Positions 861-50,704 are shown, counted from the stretch's first letter. The stretch: DNA of 64,000 nucleotides from an uncultured Phycisphaerales bacterium (GCA_963844715.1 CAWJPJ010000008.1:832001-896000); one strand, 5' to 3'. Notes: generated from the sequence alone by a model not told the origin. Numbers and translations: made by a program.

Positions 861-937
861 GAGCAGAATGGCGAAGCGGTTTGCTTCACATAATCCTGAT
901 GTCTTTCTTATGCCCATGTGGCGGAAAGGAAGGCGTC

Positions 938-7039: not shown

Positions 7040-8053
7040 TTACAATGCCTGCAAGAACTCCATCAGTTTTGGATTGGCTTTCCATGATTTGCGTTTGGAC
7101 GACCTTGGCCCAGTGAGCTCGCATGTGGCGAGCATTTTTGCTTTGGTTTCCAAGTCGATCTCGGCGTACACGTTGGTCGTATTGATTGACACGTGACCGA
7201 GCCAGGCGCGAATGGTGTTGATGTCCACGCCAGCGCGCAGTAGATGTGTTGCGGTGGTGTGGCGGATCGTGTGCGGCCCGACTCGCTTCCTGGCCAGCGT
7301 TGCGACTTTCCTGCTGGCCGCGTCGACGTGCCGCGACACCAACGCATGAACGCCGAAACGTGTGAGCGGCTCGCCGCGTTGGTTTAAGAACAGTTTTTCG
7401 CCTTGGGCGCGGTTGTCAGCCAGTTCCTTGAGCTTGTCGATCGTCGTGGGCCAGAGCGGACAAAATCGAGTTTTGTTCCCCTTGCCAACCAAGCGCACCG
7501 ATCCGGCGCCATCGGCGCGGCGTTCGATATCAGCCAGCGTCACCGCAACTGCCTCGCTCACGCGGGCGCCGGTGTTGTACAAAAACAGCAGCAGTGCATG
7601 ATCGCGGCGACCAATCTGGCGCGCAACATCCGGCGCGGCGATCAGAGCGTCAATCTCCGGCTTATCGAGATAGCACAGCGCCGGTCGATGGAACCGCTTC
7701 GATGGAATAACCCGGATTGCCGAGCACCAGGCGATGTGTTCGGGTGCATGGTCGGCGACAAAGCGAGCGAAGGCGTGGATGGCGGCAAGCCGCTGGTTGC
7801 GAGTACGTATGGTGCATTTGCGCTCTGATTCCAGGTGTGACAAAAAGCTTCGCAACCGATCAGGCGAGAGCGCATCGACTGTCAGGCGATCCACCGCCGC
7901 ACCTGTCTTCTTGGAGACGAAAGGCATCAACTGAGCGAAGGCATCGCGATAACTGCGCTGTGTGTTGCGCGATAAATTGCGTTCGGCAACCAGATGTTCC
8001 AGAAGGAAACGGCGAATCCACGTACCCAGTAAAACGCTTTTTTGTGTCATCAT
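7040..8053 (-). CDS. ritC: RIT tyrosine recombinase C
   Basis: TRNQRLAAIHAF, GARVSE, HTIRHT, WLGHVSINTTNVY. Confidence 0.9.
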   Translation of the reverse strand: MMTQKSVLLGTWIRRFLLEHLVAERNLSRNTQRSYRDAFAQLMPFVSKKTGAAVDRLTVDALSPDRLRSFLSHLESERKCTIRTRNQRLAAIHAFARFVADHAPEHIAWCSAIRVIPSKRFHRPALCYLDKPEIDALIAAPDVARQIGRRDHALLLFLYNTGARVSEAVAVTLADIERRADGAGSVRLVGKGNKTRFCPLWPTTIDKLKELADNRAQGEKLFLNQRGEPLTRFGVHALVSRHVDAASRKVATLARKRVGPHTIRHTTATHLLRAGVDINTIRAWLGHVSINTTNVYAEIDLETKAKMLATCELTGPRSSKRKSWKANPKLMEFLQAL

Positions 8054-8980
8054 CCTGCCATCGGTAAGGCGTAGTTGCGGAAGAGAGAGCTTGCCTCCTG
8101 GGCCAGTTCGCTGGTCAGTTGCAGATAAACCTGCGTCTCGCGAACGCTGCAATGGCCCAGATACGTCGCCAAGCGTGGTAGTAATTGCTGAACGTTCTTG
8201 CCCGCGGTACCAGCTAATCAGCCGGTTCACAGCGAAGGTATGCCGCAGATCATGCAACCTCGGCTGAAAGAAAAAGCTGGTTGGTCGGCGGATTCCAATC
8301 TGTTCGCGCAGGAGCTTGTAGCTGTGTTGCGCGGTCTGCTTGGCAATCCGCCGTCCCGTGCGATCGGTTAGAAACGGCTTGTCATTGCCGGCGTCGCCGG
8401 CGCGATGCTTGCCTTGGTAGGCGATCAGCAGACTGCGCAGGTCAGCGCCGATCGGCACCAGCCGGCTTTTGTAGAACTTGGTCTGGCGGATGGTAAGGAT
8501 GCTCGCCCGCAGGTCCACGTCTTCCACATTCAGCGCCAACGCTTCGCTGATGCGAAGCCCGCTGCCATATAGCAGCAACAGAATCGTTCTCATGGTGGCT
8601 GGGCTGAGTAACCAACAGTTGCGATACCGCTGACTGGTCGCTTCCAAGAGCGACTTCATCTCCGCGACCGAATAAATGTAGGGAATGAACGACCACTGCC
8701 GACGAGGCTTGTCCCGCGGCAACGGAGACGCCGATGCGTACTTGCGGCTGATCGCAAACCGATAAAAACCGGCCAGGGCATGATACTTGGAGAGCCAATA
8801 GTTGGTGACGGGGCCATCTCCATCGAGATAGCGGCGCACTGTTTGAGGAGTCACGCGCCGCAGCTCGACATCGCCAACGGCTCGGGCAAAGGCGTGGAGC
8901 AGGCCTTTTTCTCTGCAAAAACCAATGCCCAGTGATTGGCGGTACTCCACGTAACTGTTAACACAGGCCGAGACCTTCAT
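8050..8980 (-). CDS. ritB: RIT tyrosine recombinase B (frameshift near 8200 fuses it to ritC in the ORF track)
   Basis: YVEYRQSLG, GLRISE, HDLRHT; LATYLGH in the alternate frame. Confidence 0.85.
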
Positions 8981-8990
8981 TCCTGCTCCT

Positions 8991-10331
8991 TCAGGCTACA
9001 TAACCACACAGTTGCCGCCGAGCGCATCGCGTCGCGCAAAACCGGTCGGGATGCCGAGAGTGTCGGCGCTCGCAGGCGGCGTTGAACTCGATCAGTTCGC
9101 CCAAATCGACGTCGCCCACCGTCATCAAGCTCGTCATATCCACCTTGGCGTAAATCTCAGTGGACTGAACGATGGAGTGCCCAAGATGATCGCCGATCTG
9201 TTTGAGGCTGAATCCCTCCGACAACAAATGGGTTGCACAAGCATGACGCAAGCCGTGCGGTCCGTAACGCTTGAGCTTTTGGCCCAGCGACTTCTGGCGG
9301 TCGCAGACGACCGTGGCAGCCGACATCAACGGGCGATAAGGCTGAAGCATGGAAATGAAGACCTCTCTGTGCCGGCAGATGGGCCGGATCTTCAGATAGG
9401 CGACGATGGCATCACCCACGGTGGAAATGAGCGGATAGGTTCCGACACGATGCAGCTTCGGCCGTGGCGGACGAATGACCCCATTCTCCCAGTCGATATC
9501 TTCCAGGCGCAGGCCGCAAACTTCGCCTGAGCGAAAACCATAAACGGCCATCAACAGCATCATCGCGCGATCGCGAACGTCGACAGGATCGTTGGTATCG
9601 GCTGAATCAAGCAGTTCACGGACTTGTGCCCATGTCGGCCCCTGGGGGTAGCGTTCGTGGCGATAGAGCCGCGGCGCATGGATGCAGTCCCACAGGGTTG
9701 GTTCGCAACCGCGCCGACCGCCGAGCCAGCGCAAGAACACGCGCACGTGACAGATATGGCTGGCGATGGAGCACCGCGACCATCGCGTGAACTGTGGTTC
9801 CTGTAGATAGCCCGTCAACATTCGCGCGTCGAGCTTCCGCAAATCGCCGCCCGGATGTTTGGCCGCCCAGGCTAGAAACAGGCCAACGTCGCGGCGGTAA
9901 ATGCCGACGGTACAGGGCGACCATCCATGTTCGGCGCGCTTGAACTCGATAAAACCCTGCATCAGATCATCGAAAGGCCCGCGGATGAACGAACGTTCCA
10001 TGCGTCCGCAAAATGCCAGCCAATGTCTTATCCGGCCCAGGAATTTATGGATGGTGGCGGCCGATGGCTTCCTACGATGCAAGCCGCCGCGAAAGTTGCC
10101 GTCACGCCATTTAGGACCCAACGTGCGCAACTGTTCCTCGTTAACAACCTGTCCAGGCTTGAGGTCCAGCAATATGGCAGCATGGAGGGTATATCCAGCA
10201 GCATGTTTGAACGTCTCCAGCGCGCGGCCATCTTCGACCAGATGCCGCAGGTAACGTTCCCGTTCCTCGCGCATCGGGCTTTCGCGGTGCAACTGCAAAT
10301 GCTTTCGACGGGTGACAAACTGCTCAAACAT
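8991..10331 (-). CDS. ritA: RIT tyrosine recombinase A
   Basis: GFRSGE, HGLRHA, HLGHSIVQSTEIYAKVD. Confidence 0.88.
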   Translation of the reverse strand: MFEQFVTRRKHLQLHRESPMREERERYLRHLVEDGRALETFKHAAGYTLHAAILLDLKPGQVVNEEQLRTLGPKWRDGNFRGGLHRRKPSAATIHKFLGRIRHWLAFCGRMERSFIRGPFDDLMQGFIEFKRAEHGWSPCTVGIYRRDVGLFLAWAAKHPGGDLRKLDARMLTGYLQEPQFTRWSRCSIASHICHVRVFLRWLGGRRGCEPTLWDCIHAPRLYRHERYPQGPTWAQVRELLDSADTNDPVDVRDRAMMLLMAVYGFRSGEVCGLRLEDIDWENGVIRPPRPKLHRVGTYPLISTVGDAIVAYLKIRPICRHREVFISMLQPYRPLMSAATVVCDRQKSLGQKLKRYGPHGLRHACATHLLSEGFSLKQIGDHLGHSIVQSTEIYAKVDMTSLMTVGDVDLGELIEFNAACERRHSRHPDRFCATRCARRQLCGYVA

Positions 10332-12090
10332 CGCGGAACAAATCGAGATCGGCTTTGCCCGCTGCTTCGGCAATGAGGCGTGGACGATCAATTAGTTATG
10401 TTGCGAGTATCGGCGTGGGAGTGGAACAGCATTAGCTGATCGAATGATGGCGCACACGGGATGAATCCAACGAAAATAATGCTCTTGCCGTAACAGATCA
10501 GAAGCGAGAAGGCCCACAGACCACAGGAACATCTCTTACGGCCGAGCACATAACTAAACTCAACACATAAGTTCGCCAGCGCATGAAGCTGGCGACTCTG
10601 GCCGAGCCGGTGAAGGCCGCATATCGCCAGGGCGGAATCGACACCGCGACCGCTGAGGCGTTCGCATCCGTTCCGGCAGATCGGCAATTGGAAGTCTGGC
10701 AGGAAGTCGGCGGCAACCCACAGCATGCGCAGCACGTCCGTAACGTGATCGCCCATGCGTGGATCGACGCCAAATCCGCCACGTTCGACGTGTCAAAGCT
10801 GTCGGAATCCGCCGTCAGCAAAGACCTGTTTGCCGAGCGCGTTTTGATCGAACGTAAAGCGTTTATGGAGGCGCAGGCCGAAGCGCTTTTGGCCGAGCGG
10901 CAAAGGCTGATCGAGGAAGGTTGGGGCGATGTCGTGGTCGGACCGCAGGCCGACGTTCAGGATCGGCTTTATGCAATGTCCGATGCTCCGCAGGAGTACG
11001 ACCAGCAGACTACCGCCAAGCTCGAAAAACTGGCGGAGAAGCGGAGCAAGCTGGAAGCGAGGATCGAAGAACTTGAAGCCGGACCGGGCGAGTTCAGCGA
11101 GTCGGAGCAAAAGGCGTATCAGGACGTTCAGGTGAAGTTGGAAGCGCTGGACGACGACGAACAAGCCTTGACCAAGGAAGCCGATGTTCACTATGCCGAG
11201 GCGACCAAGGCCGTCGGCACGGCATTCCTGCTATTCGACCCGGACGGTCGGGTTCGGCGTGAATACCGTATCCCGCGTAACCGTCGCAACGCATCGGGCA
11301 ACGGTGTTCATGGGGGCAACGGACACGCCGGCAACGGTCAGACGGAGGCACCGAAGCCGCCGACTTCGGACGATCTTAAAGAGCCGCAACTTGCCGCGAC
11401 GTTCACGCATCAGGCGTTGGCGGTGCGCGAACTGCTGCTCAAAGACGACCGAGCTCGCAGGCGTGTCTTGGCCCTGATCCTGCATGACAAGGTGCGCAGC
11501 GAGGCGCTTTCCATCCGGCATGATGCCAACGGGACGACGGTCCACGCCGACCGTGCCGAAGGCTTCGCGTCAACCGCACTCGATACGCTCCGCAAACGCC
11601 GAGCCGAGTTGGACCCGCTGCATGACCAGCACTACGTTGAAGATCATGCTGCGTATGAAGCCGTGAAGCGTTTATCCGAGAAGAAGCTGGATGCGCTGAT
11701 CGACCTGCTGACGGTAGAGTGCATTACTGCCCACCTGCAACGCCGCACCGAATTGGTCTGGCGTCTGGCCGTCGAATTGGGCGTTGAGCTGCGCCGTTAC
11801 TGGCGTCCCGATGAGCGTTGGCTGTCGGGATACCAGAAGATTCAACTGGCGCACCTGATCGGCGAGTTGCGTGGTCCGGTGTACGCCAAAGCCGCCGAGT
11901 TGAAGAAGAAGTCAGAGTTGGTTGCTGACTTGGCCAAGCTGTTCACCGAGGCAGCCGAAGGCCGCATGGAGGATGCCAAGGTTGCCGCCAAGTTCAACGC
12001 TTGGCTGCCGTCCAATCTGCGGGAAGCGCCGCAGACGGACAGCAACGAGCAGGCGTCGGCGGCATAGTTCACAGCAACCACTGACAAGCG

Positions 12091-18319: not shown

Positions 18320-18607
18320 TTACCGACACTCTGGAAGGCTGAGAAGATTGTCGGGCTGCACGCCATCATTTTCCGTCTTGAGATATTTGTGGCCGTATGC
18401 GCTGGTGGACACAATCACATTGACGGTGCGGCCCCCACGATGTACGAAGAAAGTCCATTTGCCTTGCTCGATCCCGGCTATGGCATCCCCTTGCGTGAGC
18501 TTCCAGGAAGTTCCGTCCCCATTGCGTCCCCCGATGTGGGTAATCCGTTCATGAGGATTCATTCGGTCACTCTTGTTGATGCACAAGATTTCATGTTGAG
18601 TTGCCAT
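18320..18607 (-). CDS. DUF3892 domain protein
   Basis: CINKSDR..PHERITHIGG..YLKTENDGVQPDNLLSLPEC. Confidence 0.8.
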   Translation of the reverse strand: MATQHEILCINKSDRMNPHERITHIGGRNGDGTSWKLTQGDAIAGIEQGKWTFFVHRGGRTVNVIVSTSAYGHKYLKTENDGVQPDNLLSLPECR

Positions 18608-18659
18608 GTTGCGTCGTCCTTTCCGGCCGATAAGCCTGTTGGTGTATGCTCTTTCTCAA

Positions 18660-18675
18660 AGCAACATCGATGCCA
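18660..18675 (-). promoter_or_regulatory. sigma54 (-24/-12) promoter for the DUF3892 gene
   Basis: Minus strand TGGCATCGATGTTGCT, GG-N10-GC, near consensus. Confidence 0.8.
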
Positions 18676-18763
18676 GGGCCGCCCCGCATTTTGTTGCCAA
18701 GACGTAGATGCATGTAAATACAACTGTTGCGACGCCTTTGTTCTGCCGATCAGGAGCGAAGGC

Positions 18764-18817
18764 TTGCAACAGCCTTGCTCTCTCGTACAATTCCGTTTGT
18801 GAAGTCACAAGGGAATT
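18764..18817 (+). promoter_or_regulatory. sigma70 promoter of the activator gene with overlapping palindrome (candidate UAS/operator)
   Basis: TTGCAA-16-TACAAT; AATTCC-gt-TTGTGA-ag-TCACAA-g-GGAATT at 18789-18817. Confidence 0.55.
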
Positions 18818-18826
18818 GGTGGTAAC

Positions 18827-20415
18827 ATGGCATCAAGGCGGATTCTCTTTTCTTGGATCGGCCACACGGACTTACGCGCCATGGCGTCCACGCTTCCTGA
18901 GACAGAGCAAGAAGAAGTTCTGGCCAAAATTAAAGCGCCGGTTCTAAAGCGAGGTGAGGCTGGTCCACTCAAGTGCCTTCTCAATCACGAGAAGTTTGAG
19001 GAGGTTCATCTGCTAAGCAATTACCCTTCCGCACTCGGCCAGCGATACGTCAAATGGCTCGGCGACTCGGCAGTGCTGCATCAAGTGAAGCTAAACAACC
19101 CGACTGACTATCCAGAAGTATTCAACGTCGCCGACGCCCAACTTGCAGCGGTGGTTAACATCCCGCGTCCTCACGCAATCGATCTATGCCTGCATCTCAG
19201 CCCGGGCACGCCCACGATGACGGCAATATGGCTACTCCTCGGAAAGAGTAAATATCAGCCCGCGACTTTCTATCAGACCCACGAAAATAAAGCGTGGGTA
19301 ACGACGGTTCCGTTTGATCTCATCATGGAGTTTGTTCCGCAGGTTATTCGAGATGCTGACGCACGGCTCCAGGCTCTGGCTAGCCAAAGTCCGCGCGAGT
19401 TGAAAGGCTTCGAGGGCATTGTGGGTGAATCGAGGAGCCTGCGTGTGGCGGCCGGACTGGCACGCCGCGCCGCAACACGTGATGTGTCGGTGCTGCTTCT
19501 TGGAGAAAGCGGAACAGGTAAAGAGAAGTTCGCCCAAGCCATGCACGACGCCAGTCCACGACGGGAAGAGCCGTTCGTTTCCATCAATTGTGCGGCGATT
19601 TCTCGAGAACTGTTGGAATCCGAGTTATTTGGTCACAAGAAGGCGCTTTTACGGGTGCGGTCGAAGATCGTATTGGCGCGTTCAAAGCCGCTGATCGAGG
19701 AACACTATTTTCGGATGAAATCGGTGAGTGCGACCCGGCAATGCAAGCAAAGCTGCTCAGGGTTCTCCAGCCGCCAGACCACGATCCTTGCCGCCGCACT
19801 TTCTTTCGAGTCGGCGAGTCCAAACCAACGACCAGCGATGTTCGCATCATTTCGGCGACGAACCGCGATTTGACAAATGCCGTTACCCGCAACGAGTTCC
19901 GCGATGACCTCTACTATCGGATTGCGGCGATAACGATCAAGTTGCCCCCGCTCCGAGAACGCCGAGAAGATATTCCTCTGCTTGTTGACCATCTCCTCAA
20001 GCAGATTAACGACAACTTTAAGGACAAAGAACCTGGGTATGTCCACAAAAAGATTTCTGGTTCCGCCATGACGTTTGTGCGGAAGCACCCTTGGCCGGGC
20101 AACGTCAGACAGCTTTATAACACGCTTCTCCAGGCGGCCGTGATGACCGATGCGGAGACCATTGACCGGCAGGATATCGCGGACGCCGTCGCTGAGATTC
20201 CGGGAAAAACGACGTCTGACCTGCTTGGACAGCCGCTCGGCGAAGGCTTTGTCCTGACTGACTTTCTGGAAGAAATCCAGCGTCATTACCTGATCCGAGG
20301 AATGAAGGAGGCAGCAGGCGTGAAGTCGAAGGCCGCCGAGCTTCTCGGGTACAAGAACTACCAGACGTTGGCGGCTCAACTGGATCGGTTGAATGTCGAA
20401 ATACCCGCGACGTGA
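18827..20415 (+). CDS. sigma54-dependent activator (bEBP) with CARF-like N-terminal domain (RtcR/PspF-like); frameshift near 19643
   Basis: [19 protein letters not shown]-domain; [12 protein letters not shown](G)AFTGA across the frameshift; [22 protein letters not shown]-terminal HTH. Confidence 0.88.
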
Positions 20416-20430
20416 CACCGAAAAATTTCG

Positions 20431-20446
20431 TGGCACACGCTTCGCT
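20431..20446 (+). promoter_or_regulatory. sigma54 (-24/-12) promoter for the defence operon
   Basis: TGGCACACGCTTCGCT, GG-N10-GC, 15 bp after the activator stop and ahead of a GAAAGGA RBS. Confidence 0.75.
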
Positions 20447-20478
20447 TTTAGAGCCGTAACACGAAAGGAATTGTGATT

Positions 20479-22147
20479 ATGACCGCCGTAATGATTGAAA
20501 ACGCGATCGGTTATCAACTTCAAGTCCCCAAGGAGATTTCGCTCTCGCTTATCGTTCGAGACCCTGAAACCGTTTACGATCTGTGGCGCCGCAATGATGG
20601 TGAGCCGCGCGATAACTTCGCGCTTTCGGCGCTGCGGTTAGGCGTGATGGCTCTTCGTCAGGCTGCTGGCGCCGTGGATGGCGAAACAGTGCGCCGCGAG
20701 GGCGAAAGGCTTGTGTCGTCTGTCCGCGAATTGCTGACGGAGCGCTCGAACCAAATGATGGAGCATGTATCGACGACGCTAAAAGCATATTTCGATCCCT
20801 CCGACGGTCAATTGCCACTACGGCTTGAGCGCTTGCTGAAACGAGACGGAGAACTGGAAATTATTTTGGCCCGTCACGTGGGCGATGACGGCTCAACTCT
20901 CGCACAGACTCTAGCCCGGCATGTTGGCGAATCCAGTCCTCTATTGAAACTGCTGTCGCCCGATCAAGCGGACGGCGTTATCGGGGCGCTGACTGAAACG
21001 ATTCAGAAGGCAATGGATGATCAGCGTAGGCACGTTCTGCAGCAGTTTTCGCTCGACAAAGAGGATTCGGCGCTTTCTCGCCTGATTAAGCAGGTCTCCG
21101 ACGCCAATGGAAAGTTTCGCGGTGAGCTGTCTGAGGACATCAATCGACTCTGTGGTGAGTTCTCCCTGGACAACGAAGAAGGTGCGCTCACGCGGCTCGT
21201 GCGACAGGTTGAACGGGCACAGAGAAGCATCGTCGAGCAGTTCTCAAACGACAATGAGGATTCAGCCCTACGGCGAATGACCAAACTCCTTGAAACGACG
21301 AACAAGTCGATTCAGAACAGTCTGACGCTGGACGACGATAAATCGCCCTTGTCCCGACTGCGTCGGGAATTGATGAATGTGCTTGAGGAGGAGAAAAAGG
21401 CGAATAACTCTTTTCAAACGGAAGTGAGAGCTGTACTCGATGCGATGAAGGCTCGCCGCGAAGAGGCAGATCGTTCGACTCGGCATGGTGGGGAATTCCA
21501 AGATGCCGTTGGGGCACTTCTCCAAACCGATTCACAACGACTTGGGGATGTTTTTGAGGATGTGGGCGATAGCGCCGGCAGAATTTCTCGCTGTAAGGTC
21601 GGTGACCATGTGATCACGTTGAGCGCGGAGAGTGCGGCACCGGGGGCGAGAATTGTTAGTGAGTCAAAGGCCGACAAGTCATACGACCTTCGCCGGGCCC
21701 TTGGCGAAATCCAGCAGGCCAGAGAGAACCGCGATGCGCAAGTCGGGATATTCGTGTTTTCCTCAGCCAACGCTCCTGCGGATCTTGAGCCACTCAAGCG
21801 GTACGGCAACGACGTCGTCGTGGTGTGGAATCAGGATGATCCTTCCACTGATATTTTGCTGAAATGCGCCGTCTCGGTTGCTCGCGCTGGCGGTTCGTGA
21901 GGTTCGTGCGTCGGCAGAGGCGGAAGCGAACTTTGAAGAACTCGAAGCGGCAATTGCGAAGGTAGGTCGTGACGCAGCCGCTTTGACGGAGGTAACAACC
22001 TGGGCAAATACAGTCCAGAGCAGTGGCAAAAAGATTGCGGATCGTGTCGAAAAAGTTCGCGAGGATTTGGAAAAACAGGTTGATCAGCTTCAAGAACATG
22101 TAGCACGGCTCAAGGCCAGCGTATCGGCGGGAACTCATACTGCCTGA
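20479..22147 (+). CDS. helical-repeat/coiled-coil protein with PD-(D/E)xK nuclease-like domain (RmuC/DUF2130-like); frameshift near 21885
   Basis: FSLDxExSALxRL repeats; HGGEF..GDHVI..IVSESK..GIFVF. Confidence 0.65.
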
Positions 22148-22161
22148 TTCTGCCGCTTATT

Positions 22162-25100
22162 ATGAAGTCACTCAACTTCGAATTTCTTTCCTCAAGCTGG
22201 CCGGACTTAGCCGGCCTTGGCAGCTTTGCCGAGCAATACGCAATTCCAGACCCCTCTCACGCCGCAGTAAAGCTCCGCGCCTTCGCCGAACAGATCGTCG
22301 CCTTCATTTTTCACACGCACAAATTACCCCCAATTCCGCGAGCTAATCTAAATGACCTTCTGGAAACTCATTCGTTCCAACAAACCGTTCCGCGTGTCAT
22401 CCTCACGAAGCTGCACGAACTTCGAATAACTGGCAACCATGCCGCTCACGGCGCCGAAGTCAAAAGTCGACAGGTGCTGTATTTGCTCAAGGAAGCATAT
22501 GATTTGGGATGTTGGCTCAGCATGACTTATGCGGGCACAACAAAAGCCCAGCTTCCGTCCTTTACTGATCCGCTAACGACGCCTGGCGCCGACTCCAAGG
22601 AGCAACTCAAACGCGAGAAGAAAGCCGTGCTTGAGAAGCTAGCCGCCGCCGAAGCGCAGATGCAGCAGCTTTTATCCGAATTGGAAGCGACTCGCGGCAG
22701 GGCCACGGCGGCTGAAGCCAGCGCGGCGGAGCTGCAAGCTTCTGTGGAGGCAGGGCACAAGGCCGTTACGCGCTCTTGATTTCGACGAGGCCACTACTCG
22801 CCGTCGCCTGATCGACACGATGTTGCTGACTGCGGGCTGGGATGTCGATCCTGATGGTGGCTCGACTGCACAAGTCGGTCAGGAAATTGCGGTCGATGGT
22901 CAACCCACGGACACGGGAAAGGGTTGCGTTGATTATGTCCTTTGGGAAGATGAAACCGGCAAGCCGTTGGCGGTGATCGAGGCCAAGAAAACCGCCAAAA
23001 ACGCCGAAGAAGGCCGAACGCAAGCGAAGCTGTACGCCGACGCCCTTGAGAAGAAGCACGGCCAGCGTCCGGTCATTTTCTACACTAACGGGTTTGAAAC
23101 GACGCTCTGGAACGATGCCGACGGTGAACCACCGCGCCGGGTATATGGCATCTATGCCAAAGACAGCCTGCGCTATGTGTTCTTCAAGCGTTCTTCCCGG
23201 CAGCCCGCCACCGCTGTGCACGCGGATGCCAACATCACGGACCGAACGTATCAGATCGAAGCGGTAATGAGGGTTATCGAACGCTTTGCCGCCAAGCATC
23301 GCAAGGGGCTTATCGTACAGGCCACTGGCACCGGAAAAACTCGCGTCGCTATCTCATTGGCCGCATCTTTGATTCGGGCCAATTGGGCAAAGCGAGTGCT
23401 ATTCCTATGCGACCGGCGCGAGCTTCGGAAGCAAGCGTCCAACGCGTTCAAAGACTTTTTGCCGAGCGAGCCGCGGACGGTCGTTACGACGGATACAGCT
23501 CAAGACCGCGAATGCCGGATTTACCTGGCAACCTACCCGGCCATGTCGAAAGTCTTTGAGACCTTCGATGTTGGATTCTTTGACCTCATCATCGCCGACG
23601 AATCTCATCGGAGCATTTACAACCGTTACCGAGATATCTTTCTTTACTTCGATGCGTTGGAGGTTGGCCTGACCGCGACCCCGGTCGATTACATCGCCCG
23701 CAACACCTTTACGCTGTTCAATTGCGAGAACCAGGACCCAACATCGAATTTCACCTTCAACGAGGCGATCAATCACGTTCCCCCTTATCTCGTTCCATTC
23801 AAAGTCCAACGAGTCACAACGGCCTTCCAGCGTGACGGTATTCACTACTCCCAAATGAACGACGATCAGCGGAAGCAATTGGAGGAGGACGAGGTCGAAC
23901 CGGATCGAATCGAATTTAATCCGCACCAGGTCGACAGTCAGGTCTTTAACAAGGACACCAACCGGCACATCCTTCGCAACCTCATGGAACGAGGAATCAA
24001 GGTCAAAGACGGCCAGCAGATCGGCAAGTCCATCATCTTCGCCCGCAATCACAATCATGCGGTATTGCTTCAAAACCTCTTTGACGAAATGTATCCGCAG
24101 TACGGAGGCAAGTTTTGCCGCGTCATAGACAACTATGACCCTCGCGCCGAGGAGTTGATCGACGACTTCAAAGGATTGGGAACCAATCCCGACCTGACCA
24201 TTGCGATTTCCGTGGACATGCTCGATACGGGCATTGACGTACCGGAAGTCGTGAACCTTGTTTTCGCCAAGCCCGTCTATTCCTACGTTAAATTCTGGCA
24301 GATGATCGGTCGTGGCACTCGCCTGTGCAAAGACCTGTTGGGTGCCAGCAAGGATAAGACTCACTTCCTCGTCTTCGATCACTGGAATAATTTCAGTTAC
24401 TTCGACGAAAGCTATGAGCCTGCCGAGCCTTCTAACGGCAAGCCATTGCTTCATCGCTTGTTTGACGCCCGGCTGATTTTGGCCGAAACGGCTCTATCCA
24501 AGCCTGACATTTGCGTTTTCGAGTTGGCTGCAGCGTTGATTACCAAAGACATTGCCGATCTTCCCGAAAAGACCGTATCCGTGCGCGAGAAATGGCGGCA
24601 GGTGATTGTGGTAAAGAACCCCGAAGTGATCCGGCAATTTGAGCCGGCCACACTGGTCGCACTTCGGCAAGACATTGCCCCCCTGATGCAATGGCGCGAT
24701 ATCGCCGGCGATGAATCAGCGTATATCTTTGATCTACTGATTTGCCGACTTCAAACCGAGCTATTGCGGCAATCAGCGCGATTCGATGACCTTAAAGCCC
24801 AACTTCTGGCGATTCTCGACGATCTAGTAATGCACCTTTCCCAGGTCAAGGCGAAGGCTGACACGATCGCTTCGCTCCGCACGCAAGCATTTTGGGATCA
24901 GGTAACAGTCGCCTCACTCGAAAATGTGCGAACCGAACTTCGCGGGATTGTTCGCCACCGATCCCAAATCTCCACTCCTCGTGTTCCGCCAAAAGTCATT
25001 GACGTGAAGGAAGACGAATCGCTGATCGAGCGCAGGGACTACAAGCCCAAACTCGAAGGTCTGGACTTGGCCGCGTATCGGAAGCGCGTGGAGCAGGCGC

Positions 25101-25561
25101 TATCAAGCCTCTTTACAAACAATCCGACGCTACAGCGAATCAAGGCTGGTCAGCCGGTTTCTGAGACGGATTTGAAAACACTCGTTTCCTTGGTCCTCAC
25201 TCAGTATCCGGACCTCGACTTGACCGACCTCACCGAATACTTTCCGGAAACCGCCGGCCATCTCGACATGGCCATTCGCACCATCATCGGCTTGGACGCC
25301 CAGACCGTCGATCAGGTGTTTCAAGGTTTCGTCCGCAAGCATCGTCTGAACTCAATGCAAATTCGATTCCTGACCCTGCTTCAGAATCACATTGCTCGCT
25401 ACGGGTCGATAGAATTGGAACGGCTTTACGATGCTCCGTTTACTTCGGTCCATACCGAGGGCCTTGACGGCGTGTTCCCCGAGAACGCCCAGGTGGACGA
25501 ATTGATGTCTCTAATCAAAAAGTTCAGCCCTTCGGGGCCAAAGGATAGCGCCATAGCATGA
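22162..25561 (+). CDS. hsdR: type I restriction subunit R with N-terminal DUF4145-like domain; frameshift near 22770
   Basis: DYVLW..IEAKK nuclease motif, [28 protein letters not shown]. Confidence 0.93.
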
Positions 25562-27093
25562 TTACCGGCACGCTAAAGAACCGTATGGATCAGCTTTGGA
25601 CGGAATTTTGGACGGGTGGCATCACGAACCCACTCACCGTCATCGAGCAAATCTCCTATCTCATGTTCATTCGTATGATGGACATGCGAGAGACTCGACG
25701 CGAGAAAGCCGCTGCGCGCACAGGCAAACCATTTCAGGGCATCTATACCGGCCCAGACGACCCCCGTCGCTGGCACAATCTCGTTCACATGCCCGGCGAC
25801 CAGCTTCTCGAAACAGTTGACCAGAAGGTCTTCAAACAAATCCGCGAATTGGCTGTGAAAGACACGATCTTCGGCCAATACCTGGCCGACGCTCAGCTCA
25901 TGGTTCGCAAGCCTAGCTTGCTCGTCAAAGCCGTCGAAATGATCGAGGCCTTTCCCCTAGCCACGAGCGACACTAAGGGCGACCTGTACGAATATCTTCT
26001 CTCCAAGCTCACAACGGCTGGCATCAACGGCCAGTTCCGCACGCCGCGACACATCATCCGCATGATGGTGGATCTTGTCGAACCGCAGCCCACATGGCGC
26101 ATCGGCGACCCCGCTTGCGGAACCGCCGGCTTCCTTGTCGCTGCCATGGATTATCTCCTTGAGCACAATACATCCCCAAAGGGCATTCTTACGGAGAAGA
26201 TCAACGGCGACACGGTCAAAGTGTTCTCCGGCGATCTGCTGGAGCCTTACCGAAAGCACATCCAGAACGACATGTTCTTCGGCTTCGATTTCGACGTGAC
26301 CATGCTCCGCATCGCCGCAATGAACATGATGCTCCACGGCGTGGAGAATCCCATCATTCGTTACCAGGATACGCTGTCCAACGGATTCCCTGACAACAAA
26401 CAGCACGGCCAGTGCGCCGAGAATTTCTTTGATGCGATTCTCGCCAACCCCCCATTCAAAGGCAGCCTCGATTCCACCGATGTGCACCCTTCCCTCACTG
26501 GCAAGGTCAAAACCCGAAAGACGGAATTACTGTTTTTGGTTCTCATGCTCCGCATGCTCAAGCTGGGCGGCCGCTGCTCGGTAATTGTGCCCGATGGCGT
26601 CCTGTTTGGCTCAAGCTCCGCCCACATCGCATTGCGAAAACTACTGGTCGAAGAAAACCAGTTGCAAGCCGTCATCAAACTTCCCGCTGGCGTGTTCAGG
26701 CCATACGCAGGTGTTTCGACAGCCGTGCTGATGTTCACAAAAGGCGGCCAGACGAACGATGTTTTCTTTTACGACGTGCAAGCCGACGGTTTCTCCCTCG
26801 ACGACAAGCGTGACTCCATAAAGGAAAGCGACCTTCCCGACGTTCGTCTGCAATGGAAGAAGTGGGCCGATGGCAAGGGAAAAAAGCATTTTGCCGACCG
26901 CACCGGTAAGGCGTTCTTCGTGACCGCCAATGACATCCGAGACAATGGATACGATCTTTCGATCAACCGCCACAAGGAAGTCGTGCACGAGGAATTGAAG
27001 CACGATCCACCAAAGGTAATTCTCAAACGCCTTCGCAAATTGGAAGAGGAAATTGCTAAAGACCTGAGCGAACTGGAGGGAATGCTGAAGTGA
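25558..27093 (+). CDS. hsdM: type I m6A methyltransferase subunit M
   Basis: [22 protein letters not shown]. Confidence 0.96.
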
Positions 27094-28301
27094 TAGCGAC
27101 TCCCTCAATAACTTGGGAGGATCGCGCTTTAGGCGAAATCGCCGAGATCGACCGCGATGGCGTTGCACAGAGTCAATCGACGATGGCACGTTTTACGTCG
27201 GCCTAGAGCACATAACTGGCGAAGGTCAAATCGTTGGAGCTCGGCAGGTTGCCACTGGGGACTTGGCGAGCACTAAATTCCGCTTTGGCGACAGTCACAT
27301 CCTTTACGGCAAACTGCGGCCGTATCTATGTAAGATTGCTCGCCCAGGCTTTGCAGGCGTGTGTAGCACCGATATTCTACCGATTCTCCCCGGCCCGAAG
27401 GTTGATCGCGGATATCTATTTCACTTTCTTCGACATCCCCGGATCGTAGCTTGGGCAACCGCGCGATGCGAGGGCGCGAATCTTCCAAGGCTCAGTCCAA
27501 AGAAGCTGGACACGCTGTCTGTTCCATTGCCCCATCCAGGTGATCCAGAGCGGAGTCTAGCCGAGCAGGAGCGAATCGCTGCCGTTTTGGATAGGGCCGA
27601 TGCCATCTGCCGCAAGCGACAAGAGGCGCATCGAAGTGGTTAGAGGTCTAAGCAACAGCTTATTCCAAGACCTGTTCGTCAACTATCTAAGACTACCAAT
27701 TTCCGAAATGCCTCGGCTTGGCAATCCAGAGCTTTCAGATATAGCGTCTGGTGTCACCAAGGGGCGACGCTTCAACGGTCAACCAACAGTCATCGTGCCA
27801 TATATTCGCGTTGCGAATGTCCAGGACGGCTATCTTGACCTCAATGAGATCAAGACAATTGAGGCGCTTCCTTCCGATGTAGAGGCGCTCCGTTTGCAAC
27901 CCGGAGACGTGCTAATGACCGAAGGGGGCGACTTTGACAAGCTGGGCCGCGGCGCACTTTGGGAAGCCGATATTCTGGACTGCATCCACCAGAATCACGT
28001 CTTTCGAGTTCGATGCAACCGAAAGAATCTTCTACCCGTGTACCTGGCTCATTACATCCGCACCGAACTCGCCAAAGGATACTTTCTCCGATGTGCCAAG
28101 AAGACCTCCAACCTAGCCAGCATGAACATGACTCAATTGAAGGCCACTCCGGTTGCTTGTCCGCCAATGGAGTTGCAGAAGCGATTCACTACCGAAGTGA
28201 AAAACATCGACGACCTCAAGCGCCAACAAGGTACCGCTGTCCGTGATTCGGAAGCGCTTTTCAATTCCTTAGTTAATCGAGCCTTTGCAGGGGGACTATA
28301 G
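27090..28301 (+). CDS. hsdS: type I specificity subunit S (frameshifts near 27170 and 27630)
   Basis: Two TRDs ([25 protein letters not shown]); [25 protein letters not shown]. Confidence 0.9.
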
Positions 28302-28302
28302 C

Positions 28303-29124
28303 TTGGCCGTCCAAACGCAAAATCGAATTGCGGCGTTTTCCGCCCAGCATTTGGAGGCAATCAGCCGCGTGCTGGCAGACACGGAGACCGGGCTGACGGG
28401 TTCGGAGATTGGCCATCTCCTTTCAGATTGCCGAATCAATGATCCTGACCCAGCCATGACGAAATGGAAGCGGCTTTACAATGCATTTGTCGGCTTCCAG
28501 AACAAGAACCATATTGGGAATCACGTAGTCGTGTTTATTGGACGGGCAATGAATCCAGCCAGCTATACTTCCCGCCCGGATGTTTTCCGCCTTCGCCGCG
28601 ACAACCTAAACGCCGTACTCGCATTCTGTGGAATGCATCTTCGAGAAGACGGCAAGGTGCAGCGAACTGATCGGGCCTCCACAATTAACCAGGCATTGGA
28701 GCGGGCCGATCGCCTTCGGGCTGCCTTGACGCTCAGGAACGTACATGCCGACGTCCTCAAATTTTGCACGGCAGAATTACTCGATGAGAATTTCTTCCAC
28801 GCCGTCTTCGAGGCGATGAAAAGCATCACGGCCAAGCTGCGACAAACGAGTGGCCTCACCAATGACGGCGCCGATCTGGTACACGATGCCTTTGGTGACC
28901 GCTATGGCACGCCACTCCTGGCGATCAACTCTTACGACAGCGAAACTCTTGTTATGGAACAGCGTGGATTTGTCAGCCTTTTGAAGGGGCTGTATGGGAC
29001 GATTCGGAACCCGCTAGCCCATGATGCAAGAATCGAATGGGAAATGGATGAGCAAGATGCTCTGGATATTCTGACCATGATATCGCTCGTACACAGGAAG
29101 CTGGATAAAGCCCGTCGGCTATAA
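28303..29124 (+). CDS. TIGR02391-family protein (HEPN-like RNase)
   Basis: GLTGSEI..TKWKRLYNAF N-domain; FHAVFEAMK; RNPLAH (RxxxxH). Confidence 0.82.
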   Translation: MAVQTQNRIAAFSAQHLEAISRVLADTETGLTGSEIGHLLSDCRINDPDPAMTKWKRLYNAFVGFQNKNHIGNHVVVFIGRAMNPASYTSRPDVFRLRRDNLNAVLAFCGMHLREDGKVQRTDRASTINQALERADRLRAALTLRNVHADVLKFCTAELLDENFFHAVFEAMKSITAKLRQTSGLTNDGADLVHDAFGDRYGTPLLAINSYDSETLVMEQRGFVSLLKGLYGTIRNPLAHDARIEWEMDEQDALDILTMISLVHRKLDKARRL

Positions 29125-29154
29125 GTATTCGACCTCTAATGCGTGAGATTGAAC

Positions 29155-30820
29155 ATGATCACTGCAATCGAAATCGAGAACTTCAAAGGCTTTTCCCACC
29201 GGCAACGAATCGAGTTGCGCCCATTGACGTTGCTTTACGGTGCAAACTCTGCCGGCAAGAGCAGCGTCTTTGACGCGATTCACTACGTCCGCGAGGTGAT
29301 CGAACGTAGCAACCTTGATGCCCAACAAGTCATTGGCGGCGGGGACATGGTCGATTTAGGCGGCTTTGACACGATGGTGCACAATCACACGCCGGGCACA
29401 GTAATAAAGCTGCGGATCGACATTGGATTTCTTCCTCCAGGATTCAGCGCGAGCCTCCTCGCAAGCGAAGACGATCCGCAGGTTGTCAGTTGGATCGCAA
29501 ATCGCGCTCGTGATGGTTGGATCGAATTTCACGTCGTTCGCAATGGTCCACCAATCGTGTCGCACTACGAAATGGGTCTCAACGGAAGCCGGCTTCTCGC
29601 ATCTGATACTTCTGCCGATGGTTCTCAAGCCACGCTGACTATGGACGCGGATCATTCCATTTTCCGATTGCCCGATTCCGCTTCCAACGACGTGCCGCCT
29701 TTTATCCAGGAGCTTATTAAGAGATTTGAGGGAAACGAATCATCGATGCCCTCGAACCTGATTCGCCTCTTCTTGACGGCTGAAGACGACATGCCAGCGC
29801 CATTACCTCCCTTGCTTGAAGGTCAGGTATGGACCGTCGCTGGTGATGCATTGCCGCGAACGAACTCGGCTGAGCTAATCCGGTTAAAGCAAGCCATGGC
29901 TGAAATGCCTGAAAACAACTCAGGGCGCGTCGTACTGGGCGCTCGTTTTGAAATTTCTTCAGGAGCCACTTTCGCTGCTCCGACAGGCTCTAAACCGCGT
30001 TGGTTATCTCGGTCCGGTCCGAAAGAAGCCTGGGCGTGGATTCTCGATTGAAAAAATGGTTCCGAACACGGCGCGCGAAGCATGTGGGCTCTCCACCTGG
30101 GATTGGTTGGGGCAAGCGACTGCTGAGGAACTCGCTGAATTCAATCGCTTCATGCACTCAGAAGACCCGCGTTCACTCAAGACCGGCTATGTCATCCAAT
30201 TGAGACAATATAAGGAGCTCGACTTGGCCAGCCGATTGATGGCCGATCTTGCCGCCGGACGGGTGTTTGAAGACGTTGATCTTCGAGACGCGCTTAATTC
30301 CCTTCCCACACGGACGCAGGTGTTACTTAGGGATGAGACATCGGGACAGGGTATGCTCCTGCACCCCGAGGACGTGGGTGAAGGCGTATCCCAACTCGTC
30401 CCCGTGATTGGGATCACCCTTGGCCGACAGCACGACTTACTTATGACCGAGCAGCCCGAACTCCACGTGCACCAGACCATCCAAGCCAATCTCGGCGATG
30501 TTTTCCTTTATCGCGTCGAGCGCAGCATGGATGAATTTAACCGACTGGACGACCTTGCTCCGCTACGATGGCCCGTTCGTCAGCTCGTAGAGACTCACAG
30601 CGAACCGCTTCTTCTTCGAGTAATGCGCCGCATTCGCCAGCAAACGAAAGACAAGAAGGAATCGGCGATCAAACCCGAGGACGTTCGCATTTATTTTTTT
30701 TCAAGGAAGGATGACTCTATTCGGGTGATTCCAATCGATGTGACGCCACAGGGCGATCTCACCCAACCTTGGCCCGATGAGCAGTTCGAGGTCGACTTTG
30801 CTGAGAGGTTCGCCCGATGA
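29155..30820 (+). CDS. ABC/AAA_21 ATPase with DUF3696-like C-terminus; frameshift near 29945
   Basis: IENFK, GANSAGKSS, VGEGVSQLVP, EQPELHVH, ETHSEPLLLR. Confidence 0.85.
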
Positions 30821-31787
30821 TTTGCGAGTTTGCTCTGACACCCGAAATCTTTTCGTCTGATGCCCATGCTGATCGTGAGCTGTGGCTGTCGAGCGTTCGC
30901 GATTTCGTTGCGGCCCTGTTTCCGAAGACGAATCAACTACCAGCATGCATATCTAATTTGTACGATGGCGGTTGGGAAAGCGAAGCCGGAAAACTCGCTG
31001 TTGCAAGTGCTCCCGAAATCCGCGGTGATGTGGCCAAACTACTGAGCCGCCTCCAAGACCTGCTCGTAAAGCGCGATCCTGTCGGAGACTGGCCTGGCGA
31101 CGAAGACGCATGGGCCATGGAGGCGTCTTTGTGTTCTGCTCGACAGCTACAAATCAGCCAAATCTGGGCGAGCAACGAGTGTTGTGGACGGTTGGGCGGC
31201 CATAATTTTGCGACTTTACATGATGTTTCATATCCGGCACGTTGGAACGATTTCCGCCCCACCCGCAGAATCCCCTTGACCGTTGGTGACCAACTGGCCG
31301 CCTTGCGCATGCTGACATTTCATTCCAGTTGGTTGGCTTACATCGACCCCTACATCCATGGTTCGACTGCCGATGACGAGCTAGAGCTGGCGTTAGCGTT
31401 TTGACTCAAATGCGGGCTAGGCCTCGCACCACACCTGTGCTTCTCGACATTCACACTGACGACGCGATAAATCCAACAAACGTTCTTGCCAATATCAACC
31501 GGCGACTTCCGGCCGCCGATCCTTCCTTCCAGATTCGCGCGTTCTTTTGGCCGAGAAAGATGCTGGAGCGGTATGTGCTGGCGGGCGAAGTTAATGCTTC
31601 GGCGGCTAACTTGCGGCAGCAACGAGTTCGTTGGGGCGTGGGCATGGGGCATGTGGCCCGAGACAATGCCAATGCTCGAAACGTAACGCCAGTTACTTGG
31701 TCTCTCCTGCCTAGATCGGAAGTTCCAGGGCTGTTTGCCGAATACTACTCCACAACAGCCCCCACGTTGATTCAGCGAATTCGCTGA
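30817..31787 (+). CDS. hypothetical ATPase partner protein (frameshift near 31402)
   Basis: ATGA overlap with the ATPase; MICEFALTPE N-terminus; IDPY..ERYVL..GVGMG C-terminus. Confidence 0.6.
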
Positions 31788-41624: not shown

Positions 41625-41972
41625 CTACCAGCCGGCGCCGCCGTCGAAGCCGAAGAACGTCACGCCGAAGCTGGTGGCCGTGACCGCGATGGACACGCCC
41701 AGCAGCAGGCCGAGGATGCGCCGCAGCCCACCGCCTTCGCTGAACGCGAAACCAAATCCGATGACAACGATGGCCAGGATGCACAGCGCCTTTGCCACCG
41801 GGCCGGTGAAGCTGGCCAGCACTTGGTTCAATGGACCTTCCCACGGGAGAGGCTGACCGCCATTGGCTGCCGCAGCTAAACTGGCACGAGGAATGCTCAG
41901 AAGTGTCAGCACACCCGCGATAGCAGGCGCGACAATCGAGCGTCGATAACGAACGAGGGATCGACTGTTCAT
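41625..41972 (-). CDS. trbC: TrbC/VirB2 pilin
   Basis: LPWEGPLNQVLASFTGPVAK and two TM segments. Confidence 0.92.
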   Translation of the reverse strand: MNSRSLVRYRRSIVAPAIAGVLTLLSIPRASLAAAANGGQPLPWEGPLNQVLASFTGPVAKALCILAIVVIGFGFAFSEGGGLRRILGLLLGVSIAVTATSFGVTFFGFDGGAGW

Positions 41973-42753: not shown

Positions 42754-43393
42754 ATGCGAACGTCCACGCTTACTAAAACCCATAACGGCAGCAGCGCAGA
42801 GCGGCAGATTGTGAAGCTGGTCCGACGCAAGGGCCTGCTCCGCGCCCGCGACCTGCGGCCGCTTGCCATTCCCCGACGGCACCTGACCCGACTGGTCGCG
42901 GAGGGCGTGCTGCTACGGTCCGGTCGTGGAATTTACGCACTCGCGGATGCCGCGGCCAGCGAGCATCGGTCGCTGGCCGAAGTCTGTGCGCAGGGTTCCG
43001 GCAGGAGTCGTCTGTCTCCTGTCGGCGCTTCGCTTTCACAGCCTAACGACGCAAAACCCGTGGGAAGTATGGCTGGCGATCACTCCGGCAAGTCGAAAGC
43101 CGCGTATCGACCATCCGCCGCTTCGCATCGCTCGATTCTCTGGACCGGCGTTTCGTGAAGGCGTGGACCACCATCGCATCGAGGGGGTGGAGGTCAAAGT
43201 TTATTCGCCTGCCAAGACCGTCGCTGACTGCTTCAAGTATCGCAACAAAATCGGCATCGAAATCGCCATTGAAGCACTCCGCGATGCCTGGGGCAAACGC
43301 GCGGCGACCGCCGATCAGCTTTGGCAGTATGCAAAAGTTTGTCGAGTCACCAACGTCATGCGGCCCTACCTCGAAACTATCGCCCACACCTGA
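42754..43393 (+). CDS. abiEi: type IV TA antitoxin AbiEi (frameshift near 42990)
   Basis: GRGIY, VCLLSALRFHSLTTQNP, AKTVADCFKYRNKIG. Confidence 0.9.
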
Positions 43394-43415
43394 ACTCGCG
43401 AGACTAACGACCGGC

Positions 43416-44355
43416 ATGAAGAATCCCCCTCATAACATCGCCGCTTCCGTTCGCCAGCGTCTTTTGAACCTCTCGAAAGCGTCGGGCGTGGATTACAACC
43501 AATTGCTGATCCGTTACGCCATCGAACGGCTGCTGTACCGTTTGAGTCGTTCCCGTCATCGCGAGAACTTCGTGCTCAAGGGGGCGATGCTCTTCGTGAT
43601 TTGGGAGGGATCGCCGCATCGGCCGACTCAGGACGTGGACCTGTTGGGATTTGGCGACCGTTCGCCCGATCGCATCGCTGGCGTGTTTCGGGAACTCTGC
43701 GAAACAGCCGTCGAAGACGACGGGATCATCTTTGCCGCAAAAACCGTGGAAGCCGAGGAAATCCGCACGACCGACGAGTATGGCGGGGTCCGAGTGCGTT
43801 TCACGGCATCGCTTGGCGGCGCGGTCATCCGTGTCCAGGCGGATGTGGGATTTGGTGACGCCATTACGCCGGCTTCGCCGGAATCGAACTATCCGACGTT
43901 GTTGCCAAATCAGCCGGCGCCGCACTTGCGCGTCTATCCACGCGAAACTGTCGTTGCTGAAAAACTGGAGGCTATCGCCAAGCTCGGGATGCTCAACACG
44001 CGGTTCAAGGATTATTACGACTTGCGATATTTGGCGGAGCGTTTCGAGTTTGATGGTGCGATGCTGATCGAAGCAATCACGGCAACGTTCGAGCGACGCG
44101 GCACGCCGCTGCCGATCCGCGCTTCCAGTCGGCTTGAGCGCGGCTTTCGTAACTGACGCAGTGAAGCAGACGCAATGGGCTGCTTTTCGTCGACGCCAGC
44201 CGGCACAGAAGCTACCGGACCTGCCCGATGTGGTTGCGGCAATCAACCGCTTCGTTGAGCCTGCGTTGCTGGCCGCCGGCGAACGATCCTCGTTCGCGCG
44301 CAAATGGAATGTCGCGCGCGGTTGGTCGGTGAGCGGTGCGTCAACCGCGTCGTAA
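43416..44355 (+). CDS. abiEii: type IV TA toxin AbiEii nucleotidyltransferase (frameshift near 44120)
   Basis: SVRQRLLN, FVLKGAML, RPTQDVDL, AEKLEAI, TRFKDYYD. Confidence 0.92.
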
Positions 44356-47474: not shown

Positions 47475-47625
47475 GAGCGACTTGGAATTGAACTTCGGCC
47501 GGTACCTCCCTGCGCTCGGGCGGACGGACGACCATGACACGGGTACGCAGCCCGGCTGATTCTCGCCCTCGGCGTTGCCTTTTGGCGCAACGTGGAATCA
47601 CTGTCCAGGGATTTTGAAGGTCAAC

Positions 47626-48834: not shown

Positions 48835-48902
48835 TCGTTCTCGGGAGACCGACCTTCGTGCATTGAGGACAGCCATGATCGATCACATGCGACGTGACGC
48901 CA

Positions 48903-49090: not shown

Positions 49091-49129
49091 GGTGACGACC
49101 TCGAAACTAAAAAACTCATGGAAGGAAGT

Positions 49130-50676: not shown

Positions 50677-50704
50677 TTGATGGGCCAGTCATCAAGGAGA
50701 AATC

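Follow-up and report, generated by a model that had tools for sequence, protein, structure and literature searches.

Type I restriction is commonly viewed as constitutively active, with control exerted after translation. RtcR-like CARF-AAA-HTH (helix-turn-helix) proteins encoded beside restriction-modification (R-M) genes have been described as likely sigma-54 activators that sense either RNA with a cyclic phosphate or a phage nucleotide (Makarova 2014, PMC4012209), and Supplementary File 4 of that study holds, for Desulfobacterium autotrophicum HRM2, the order activator-hsdR(DUF4145)-hsdM-hsdS-DUF3696 ATPase. Superoperons with type I R-M genes directly behind the CARF gene, a cyclic-phosphate RNA signal and a HEPN feedback loop were put forward by Bell 2024 (PMC11090510). 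In Salmonella, the operon activated by RtcR is headed by Rsr and Y RNAs, and the RtcR CARF domain binds cyclic-phosphate tRNA halves, leading to activation (PMC7790460, PMC9879122). Here we analysed a stretch of 64,000 nucleotides from an uncultured Phycisphaerales bacterium (GCA_963844715.1, CAWJPJ010000008.1:832001-896000; hereafter the window), in which a gene for a CARF-AAA+-HTH activator is followed by a defence operon. This locus is a real, well-supported new member of the class predicted since 2014. A preliminary description, made from the sequence of the window, did not recognise the gene combination as a named system; family, gene order, ligand hypothesis and feedback are all present in PMC4012209 and PMC11090510, and its model, probably correct in its main lines, had been published before.

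We consider it probable that the locus works as a CARF-gated sigma-54 switch, which moves from low to high expression upon an RNA-damage signal and uses two sites and two promoters. An activator of the RtcR_PspF2 class, riding an integrated conjugative element (ICE) of ~80 kb, would be made from its own sigma-70 promoter and would repress itself via a tandem palindrome over that promoter. The signal bound by its CARF domain would most likely be an RNA end that carries a 2',3'-cyclic phosphate after cleavage of tRNA or other RNA during infection or DNA damage, and the AAA+ domain of the signal-bound protein would oligomerise. From the upstream site the activator would open a divergent promoter (DUF3892), and from a site inside its own gene the promoter just past its stop codon, boosting a defence operon that encodes a nuclease, type I R-M, a HEPN RNase and a Menshen NsnBC-like pair, with a putative benefit against phages. 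Low read-through from the activator promoter would probably keep the host methylated, making the switch low-to-high and not off-to-on.

Both halves of the interrupted activator frame were assigned by PADLOC to RtcR_PspF2 (PDLC01995, 229 + 296 bits), with lower scores for PspF1 (97 + 123 bits) and RtcR (54 + 117 bits). We take this profile name to originate from Makarova 2020. The protein does not reach the cut-off of canonical RtcR (NF038308, 95 + 214 bits versus 650 needed), scores 17 bits against PF06956 (cut-off 23), is followed by hsdRMS and has no adjacent rtcB, the only rtcB match of the genome lying on another contig. Matches to PF00158, PF25601 and PF02954 correspond to an NtrC-type AAA+ domain and a Fis-type HTH, and the motifs FSWIGHTD, HLSPGTP, Walker A and HTH are seen. 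The bacterial enhancer-binding protein recognised in the preliminary description, with GAFTGA after restoring one missing base, is therefore present as proposed; the frame is intact at GAFTGA in the relative P0001 (94% identical), and the break in the window is probably an assembly error. Furthermore, the proposed CARF-like N-terminal domain is supported by an AlphaFold2 model of residues 1-195 (predicted local distance difference test, pLDDT, 85; nine-sequence alignment), for which the top 20 VIA-align rows were all CARF proteins, the best being the CARF domain of Csm6 (Z 14.8, root mean square deviation 2.3 Å, 137 residues aligned). Foldseek agrees with the CARF fold, and a PDB sequence search using the CARF profile returned nothing significant. 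The motif after CARF strand 4 reads SPGTP in 89 of 90 matches and contains no basic residue, a feature noted for RtcR-type CARF domains by Makarova 2014 (PMC4012209).

The family is large, with at least 580 members confirmed among the 600 pattern matches listed in the genome collection, from which 79 loci were taken; together with 12 regions from a search of 301 genomes and the window itself, these were the loci analysed. The search of the 301 genomes with the PDLC01995 profile matched all generic activators, and about a dozen full-length matches were kept. A single-sequence genome scan gave no match, and a metagenome scan yielded generic activators only, with zero CARF matches; these generic activators were reused as the negative control set. 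The nearest named homologues of the activator come from Planctomycetota. One close homologue (L048, 68% identical in the CARF domain), accompanied by DUF3892 and R-M genes, comes from a genome labelled Alcaligenaceae, which suggests cross-phylum transfer or mis-binning.

A -24/-12 promoter 15 bp past the activator stop codon, as given in the preliminary description, was found again (Table 1), and 63 nt separate this stop codon from the first ATG of the operon. Matches to the sigma-54 consensus with one mismatch number nine in the window versus 5.7 expected, a single match thus not being rare alone, and the significance of the operon promoter derives from its conservation across loci. A downstream promoter of at least 10/12 was present in 56 of 76 scored loci, compared with 2/76 on the opposite strand and ~2% of shuffles. 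After 16 of 92 loci had been dropped as truncated and then four as duplicates, 72 family loci remained, 54 of which carry a match of at least 10/12 in the interval from -30 to +150 relative to the stop codon (48 within 45 nt), whereas the same downstream match occurs in 15 of 74 unrelated generic activators (six of 80 skipped). Moreover, 47 of the 54 promoter-bearing loci have R-M or ATPase genes next, versus three of the 18 promoter-less ones, and all five proteobacterial plasmid copies fetched (of seven matches) carry the promoter at 10/12 or better. Comparative evidence from this promoter and from the candidate sites described below argues that the activator very probably exerts sigma-54 control over the downstream genes, in line with the preliminary description; rpoN is present in the genome, which is 85% complete. 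A further one-mismatch consensus match at 41882-41897 (+), near the start of the trb block, is at chance level.

The candidate binding site is a tandem palindrome, which upstream of the activator scores at least 14/16 in 39 of 86 loci (shuffles 0.01%), usually between positions -35 and -45, and which in the window is the best site of the genome, though the window belonged to the training set. A second copy lies within the activator gene and is the second-best site in the genome; no further site above 16.9 bits was detected genome-wide, so a wider regulon was not found. Scored by a matrix trained on upstream sites alone, the intragenic site occurs in 50 of 72 family loci versus 1 of 74 controls, and 48 of these 50 loci also carry the downstream promoter; where the promoter is lost, the site is mostly lost as well. 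At six wobble positions, 273 of 297 match, versus 98.5 expected from the codon use of each gene (50 genes), an excess that holds at high G+C content of third codon positions too; in 14 promoter-less genes the match is 36/83 versus 22.1 expected. This test omitted eight loci, and its six positions were chosen after viewing the alignment. An unbiased scan for synonymous conservation over the last 480 codons of 49 genes placed its top peak on the same 12 codons (z up to 13.2; 12-codon window mean 6.5 versus gene mean 1.6, standard deviation 1.3). Since these wobble positions are conserved beyond the codon-use expectation, the constraint on this stretch, as judged from the alignments, acts on the DNA. 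Alternatively, the stretch could act at the level of RNA or translation, or the operon could be constitutive and the activator no more than a neighbour that regulates itself, as would fit the lack of helical phasing between site and promoter (p 0.62; distances 366-453 bp) and the downstream promoter matches that 20% of generic activators also have. To this we give the smallest chance of all readings considered here, given that sequence and spacing of the stretch agree with the upstream palindrome and that stretch and promoter are lost together in the rsr-linked clade described below, where the protein is still 56-59% identical in the CARF domain.

With regard to the CARF-gated switch, the upstream palindrome would serve a second arm. 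It lies ~110 bp from a divergent sigma-54 promoter at 18660-18675, which the preliminary description had missed and which heads a DUF3892 gene. Divergent matches of at least 10/12 were found in 30 of 85 upstream windows versus 3/85 on the same strand as the activator, and DUF3892 takes the same position in L044, L046, L047, L048, L049 and L051. Two of the nearest relatives, L044 and L046, have the operon's first gene (gene 1) in their divergent arm, which fits a two-armed regulon; across the loci, gene 1 and DUF2130/BREX cargo are found in either arm. Because the upstream palindrome overlaps a sigma-70-like -10 box, its position suggests that the activator represses itself. Sigma-70 consensus matches in the region number five versus 7.3 expected and are not significant alone; 23 of the 39 strong upstream sites start with TAYAAW.

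A hint to the signal comes from a sister clade of seven loci (L050, L052-L057, mostly Gemmataceae), all of which carry rsr/Ro60 beyond the divergent promoter. A conserved hairpin-rich non-coding stretch precedes rsr on the strand opposite to the activator gene, ~200-480 nt upstream of the latter (e.g., L055:9575-9795 minus). This candidate Y RNA adjoins rsr on the same strand in 7/7 loci and contains the motif GNCGAAN0-1G, taken from PMC4201824, exactly in four and with one C-to-U variant in three; it has no Rfam match, and its stems are nearly invariant, leaving covariation weak. Double changes in helix 3 are probably due to one poorly aligned row (L052) and were not counted as support. No rtcB was noticed among the open reading frames (ORFs) listed within 5 kb of these loci. 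Downstream promoter and intragenic site are both gone in L053-L056, the four loci of this clade that passed the filters, while L050 and L057 also have no downstream promoter, and L052 is cut short. An IQ-TREE tree of 74 proteins pairs the rsr clade with that of the window (P0001 as representative; SH-aLRT 100) as sister groups and places the former within the R-M-linked clades. As this clade would drive rsr, part of the RNA-damage output of RtcR, the analogy favours an RNA-damage-type ligand as the best guess for the CARF signal and is a reason to put cyclic-phosphate RNA first among the ligands; together with the SPGTP motif, it keeps the nucleotide or RNA-damage signal of the preliminary description in place, with the RNA-damage type favoured.

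With the same wiring, the ligand of the CARF domain could instead be a cyclic oligonucleotide, a phage-modified nucleotide or the product of a DNA break. Among solved folds, the nearest are those of Csm6, Can2 and ring nucleases, which bind cyclic oligoadenylate (cOA), CBASS cyclases are encoded in several regulons (L051, L059, L072, L073 and L093), and a phage-specific nucleotide was offered as an alternative by Makarova 2014 (PMC4012209). We regard such a ligand as unlikely, though a serious contender, as the motif after strand 4 contains no basic residue, the 85%-complete genome gave no match to Cas10 or SMODS, and the sister clade is linked to rsr.

The preliminary description assumed a silent off state that would avoid self-restriction upon entry into a naive host, which now appears doubtful. 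hsdM and hsdS are located downstream of the same promoter as hsdR, and a fully silent operon would thus leave the host DNA without methylation. Activator and operon run in the same direction, and of 54 loci only one, that of the window, shows a terminator-like hairpin between the two, which makes basal read-through from the promoter of the activator likely; under a stricter terminator rule, none is listed between the window's activator and operon. A strict off-to-on suicide switch, with methylase and restriction endonuclease silent and induction cutting the unmethylated host as abortive infection, would be consistent with the gene order behind the promoter, where hsdR comes first in 41 of 71 loci (ATPase in 4, hsdM in 1, other or none in 25), and with the large share of Abi-like (abortive-infection-like) cargo (HEPN, NsnBC-like, CBASS). 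It would also be consistent with the synonymous scan of hsdR (27 genes, last 600 codons), which showed no peak, and a conserved internal promoter before hsdM was rejected as a candidate. We nevertheless consider such a suicide switch decidedly unlikely, because terminator-like structures are absent between activator and operon in 53/54 loci, a sigma-70-like match, though at chance level, precedes hsdM by 143 bp, the wobble test has little power for degenerate promoters, and internal promoters are expected in such superoperons (Bell 2024, PMC11090510).

Considering the sequence quality, six of the eight genes of activator and operon are frameshifted (activator, gene 1, hsdR, hsdS twice, ATPase and last gene). 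Elsewhere in the genome rpoB is broken into four pieces, rpoC is spread over two frames and rtcB over three, and 12 other genes (12.6 kb, a small sample) contain 13 frameshifts, so the frameshifts of the locus look mostly like assembly errors. The split of gene 1 appears to be a real break, since in P0284 (94.7% identical) gene 1 stops at the identical residue. The window copy might thus be a decaying relic with real frameshifts, the locus being dead, in agreement with the six broken genes, the Walker B sequence FSDE and the gene 1 split common to a relative. The comparable damage to rpoB, rpoC, rtcB and the other genes and the intact P0001 leave this only a slim chance.

Several further observations weigh against the switch as we draw it, in addition to the missing phasing, the cOA-binding structural neighbours and the CBASS cyclases of some related loci, which make a cyclic-nucleotide ligand possible. 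Six promoter-bearing loci fall below the threshold for the intragenic site, and among the plasmid copies the site reaches at least 12 in only two of the three where it was locatable. The window hairpin, weak and followed by four T, lies over the promoter and would reduce read-through. Walker B reads FSDE in the window's activator versus FLDE in 25/25 aligned homologues, and together with G273R near Walker B (L278S producing FSDE) this means that the window copy may be impaired. The tree is a quick one without bootstrap, and the rsr link represents one evolutionary event. Finally, related genomes are not independent, and all locus counts thus overstate significance.

As the preliminary description had reported, seven co-oriented genes follow the activator with tight junctions (-4 to +31 nt); their positions and those of the regulatory features are listed in Table 1.

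Table 1 Features of the regulon in the window (positions counted from its first nucleotide)
Feature	Position	Strand	Basis or remark
DUF3892 gene, divergent arm	18320-18607	-	Pfam PF13031, E 6e-22
Divergent sigma-54 (-24/-12) promoter match heading DUF3892	18660-18675	-	11/12 consensus
Putative sigma-70 promoter of activator, TTGCAA-16-TACAAT	18764-18791	+	Consensus scan; overlapped by upstream operator
Upstream tandem palindrome, ACAA-N6-TTGT-N6-ACAA-N6-TGGT	18786-18821	.	Candidate enhancer for divergent promoter and candidate autorepression operator
RtcR_PspF2-type CARF-AAA+-HTH sigma-54 activator	18827-20415	+	PADLOC PDLC01995; two frames, break ~19645 inside GAFTGA
Intragenic tandem palindrome, candidate enhancer	20044-20079	.	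Dual-coded in AAA+ lid region; ~390 bp upstream of operon promoter
Sigma-54 (-24/-12) promoter match of defence operon, TGGCACACGCTTCGCT	20431-20446	+	12/12 on consensus used; 15 nt after activator stop
Gene 1, coiled-coil/repeat protein, predicted C-terminal PD-(D/E)xK (Mrr-like) domain, 473 aa	20479-21900	+	Three FS(L/N)D repeats
Separated C-terminal coiled-coil tail of gene 1	21878-22147	+	Matches C-terminus of full-length homologues
hsdR, N-terminal DUF4145 (HEPN-like), frameshift ~22770	22162-25561	+	PF13643, PF04851, PF08463; PADLOC REase_I 876 bits
hsdM	25558-27093	+	PF02384, PF12161; MTase_I 580 bits
hsdS, two frameshifts	27090-28301	+	Specificity_I models
TIGR02391/Ymh HEPN protein, PD-lambda-3 B homologue	28303-29124	+	357 bits; Rx4H motif RNPLAH
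ABC ATPase with DUF3696, Menshen NsnB-like, frameshift ~29950	29156-30820	+	Domain and PADLOC matches; architecture as in PMC12065111
PIN-like + PLD-fold protein, Menshen NsnC-like, frameshift ~31400	30817-31787	+	Structure model of homologue P0121

Of the 'repeat nuclease' that the preliminary description placed first, the three repeats are confirmed, while the nuclease activity is a prediction: G-D and E-x-K are invariant in 43 homologues, and the Mrr-like domain is weakly supported by Mrr_cat matches in 21 of these 43 (best E 4e-4). Gene 1 was rejected as a member of DUF2130 (HHalign probability 1.6%), and a PDB profile search gave chance matches only. Its family is large and without a name (2632 matches among 8000 scored; homologues P0222-P0341), and DUF2130 or, in L049, a gene that by eye looks like RmuC/ShdA fills the first-gene slot elsewhere. 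The type I R-M set of hsdR, hsdM and hsdS is complete. As the DUF4145 domain of HsdR has R-x7-H (RxxGNxxxH in all 30 motif rows listed) in place of Rx4-6H, its HEPN activity is uncertain. Ymh proteins are a HEPN family (PMC3710099), and TIGR02391 occurs in only two of 91 related loci, in one as a 29-aa fragment, so that feedback of HEPN products on the activator, as envisaged in the preliminary description, is weak for this protein. For the last gene, previously left without a function, the homologue P0121 (31% identical over matched parts) was modelled with pLDDT 96 and showed a PLD fold (Z 10-11.7) and a PIN-like domain (Z 6-7.5); no HDR or HKD motif was detected in this gene, its PLD domain having L-D/E-R instead of HDR, and its assignment to a PADLOC family was rejected (one chance match in 81). 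The last two operon genes resemble Menshen NsnB and NsnC, without NsnA.

The cargo of related loci was surveyed in 36 cluster representatives and included BREX with DUF2130, CBASS, TerY-P, AbiTii and YhcG. In L037, L079, L107, L119 and L121, DUF2130 and then BREX genes immediately follow the sigma-54 promoters of the activator in one arm or the other, except that L037 has no DUF2130 in that arm and L119 no promoter match. Pairs of CBASS cyclase and effector occur in the divergent arm directly behind DUF3892 in L051 and downstream of the activator in L059, L072, L073 and L093.

The defence block is flanked by conjugation genes, with relaxase, coupling protein and TrbB-like ATPase to the left and trbI, trbG, trbL and trbE to the right, and is bracketed on contig C8 by 43-bp direct repeats ~80 kb apart, which identifies it as ICE cargo, as the preliminary description had it. 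Direct repeats of 43-60 bp resembling tRNA 3' ends (window 52374-52433; G000:C8:804456-804498 and 920468-920527) delimit the ~80-kb element and a second tandem element of ~36 kb, and an integrase starts at window 52567, near the repeat at 52374-52433; ARAGORN called no tRNA within the window. A triplet of tyrosine recombinase genes (881-4163, +) and a pair, one with two integrase domains (7040-10391, -), presumably resemble RIT elements. The same element also encodes an AbiEii toxin (43155-44156) and metabolic cargo (class I aldolase, epoxide hydrolase, P450 and short-chain dehydrogenase/reductase; 44558-51487).

More tentatively, and as something we find conceivable rather than probable, the activator gene might itself be the enhancer, and CARF gene, dual-coded site and stop-codon promoter might travel as a widespread, portable stress cassette, a ~1.7-kb unit that places the defence genes flanking it on either side (type I R-M, BREX, CBASS, Menshen-like pairs, TerY-P) under the control of RNA damage, so that tRNA cleavage by one layer would arm the others at the level of transcription, one lineage having been re-wired to Ro60/Y-RNA clean-up. 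The CARF-gated switch may also explain why some defence islands seem inactive when cloned without a trigger. In the literature searched, we found no experimental test of a signal-gated sigma-54 switch over R-M, BREX, CBASS or Abi-like genes; the conserved promoters and the two palindromes make this prediction directly testable, also by synonymous recoding that spares the protein.

Compared with known systems, the locus is closest to the RtcR-like R-M family of Makarova 2014, with which it shares domain architecture, gene order and the absence of an rtcAB link, differing in the extra nuclease gene ahead of hsdR. The text and the first part of Supplementary File 4 of PMC4012209 contain no promoter or binding-site sequences, and a term search of the whole file gave no TROVE entry. 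The RtcR-associated CoCoNuT superoperons (PMC11090510) likewise have an RtcR-like CARF activator, R-M genes directly behind it and a long co-oriented defence operon, whereas here the late cargo consists of the Ymh HEPN protein and the NsnBC-like pair; no McrBC/CoCoNuT tandem was matched among the 15 ORFs scanned, and conjugation genes follow at 32 kb. An upstream activating sequence was proposed by Bell 2024 (PMC11090510), none being identified in the parts of that work considered here. Menshen (NsnABC), which often adjoins type I R-M, has an ABC ATPase with DUF3696 followed by a protein of inactive PIN and PLD fold, as in its PB-PLD1 variant (PMC12065111), whereas here the DUF262 gene NsnA is absent and the PLD domain is without HDR. 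A search for NsnA (ParB-DUF262) gave no DUF262 match in the region, and one DUF262 query matched only L067, L093 and L038 among related loci. The TIGR02391 gene matches component B of PD-lambda-3 (357 bits), and no other PD-lambda-3 components were found among the 15 ORFs scanned. In the literature searched, neither the rsr link nor the cis-regulatory map was found; PspF2 neighbourhoods, rsr links among them, may already be covered by Makarova 2020 (Nucleic Acids Research). RtcR of Salmonella and E. coli (rsr-yrlBA-rtcBA) is likewise a CARF-gated sigma-54 activator, and the sister clade found here would drive rsr and a candidate Y RNA. RtcR, however, is divergent from its target, which is RNA repair, whereas the main target here is defence and lies downstream, with the candidate enhancer inside the activator gene. 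What our analysis adds to these systems is a cis-regulatory map, comprising the conserved promoters and the intragenic site, and the rsr-linked sister clade.

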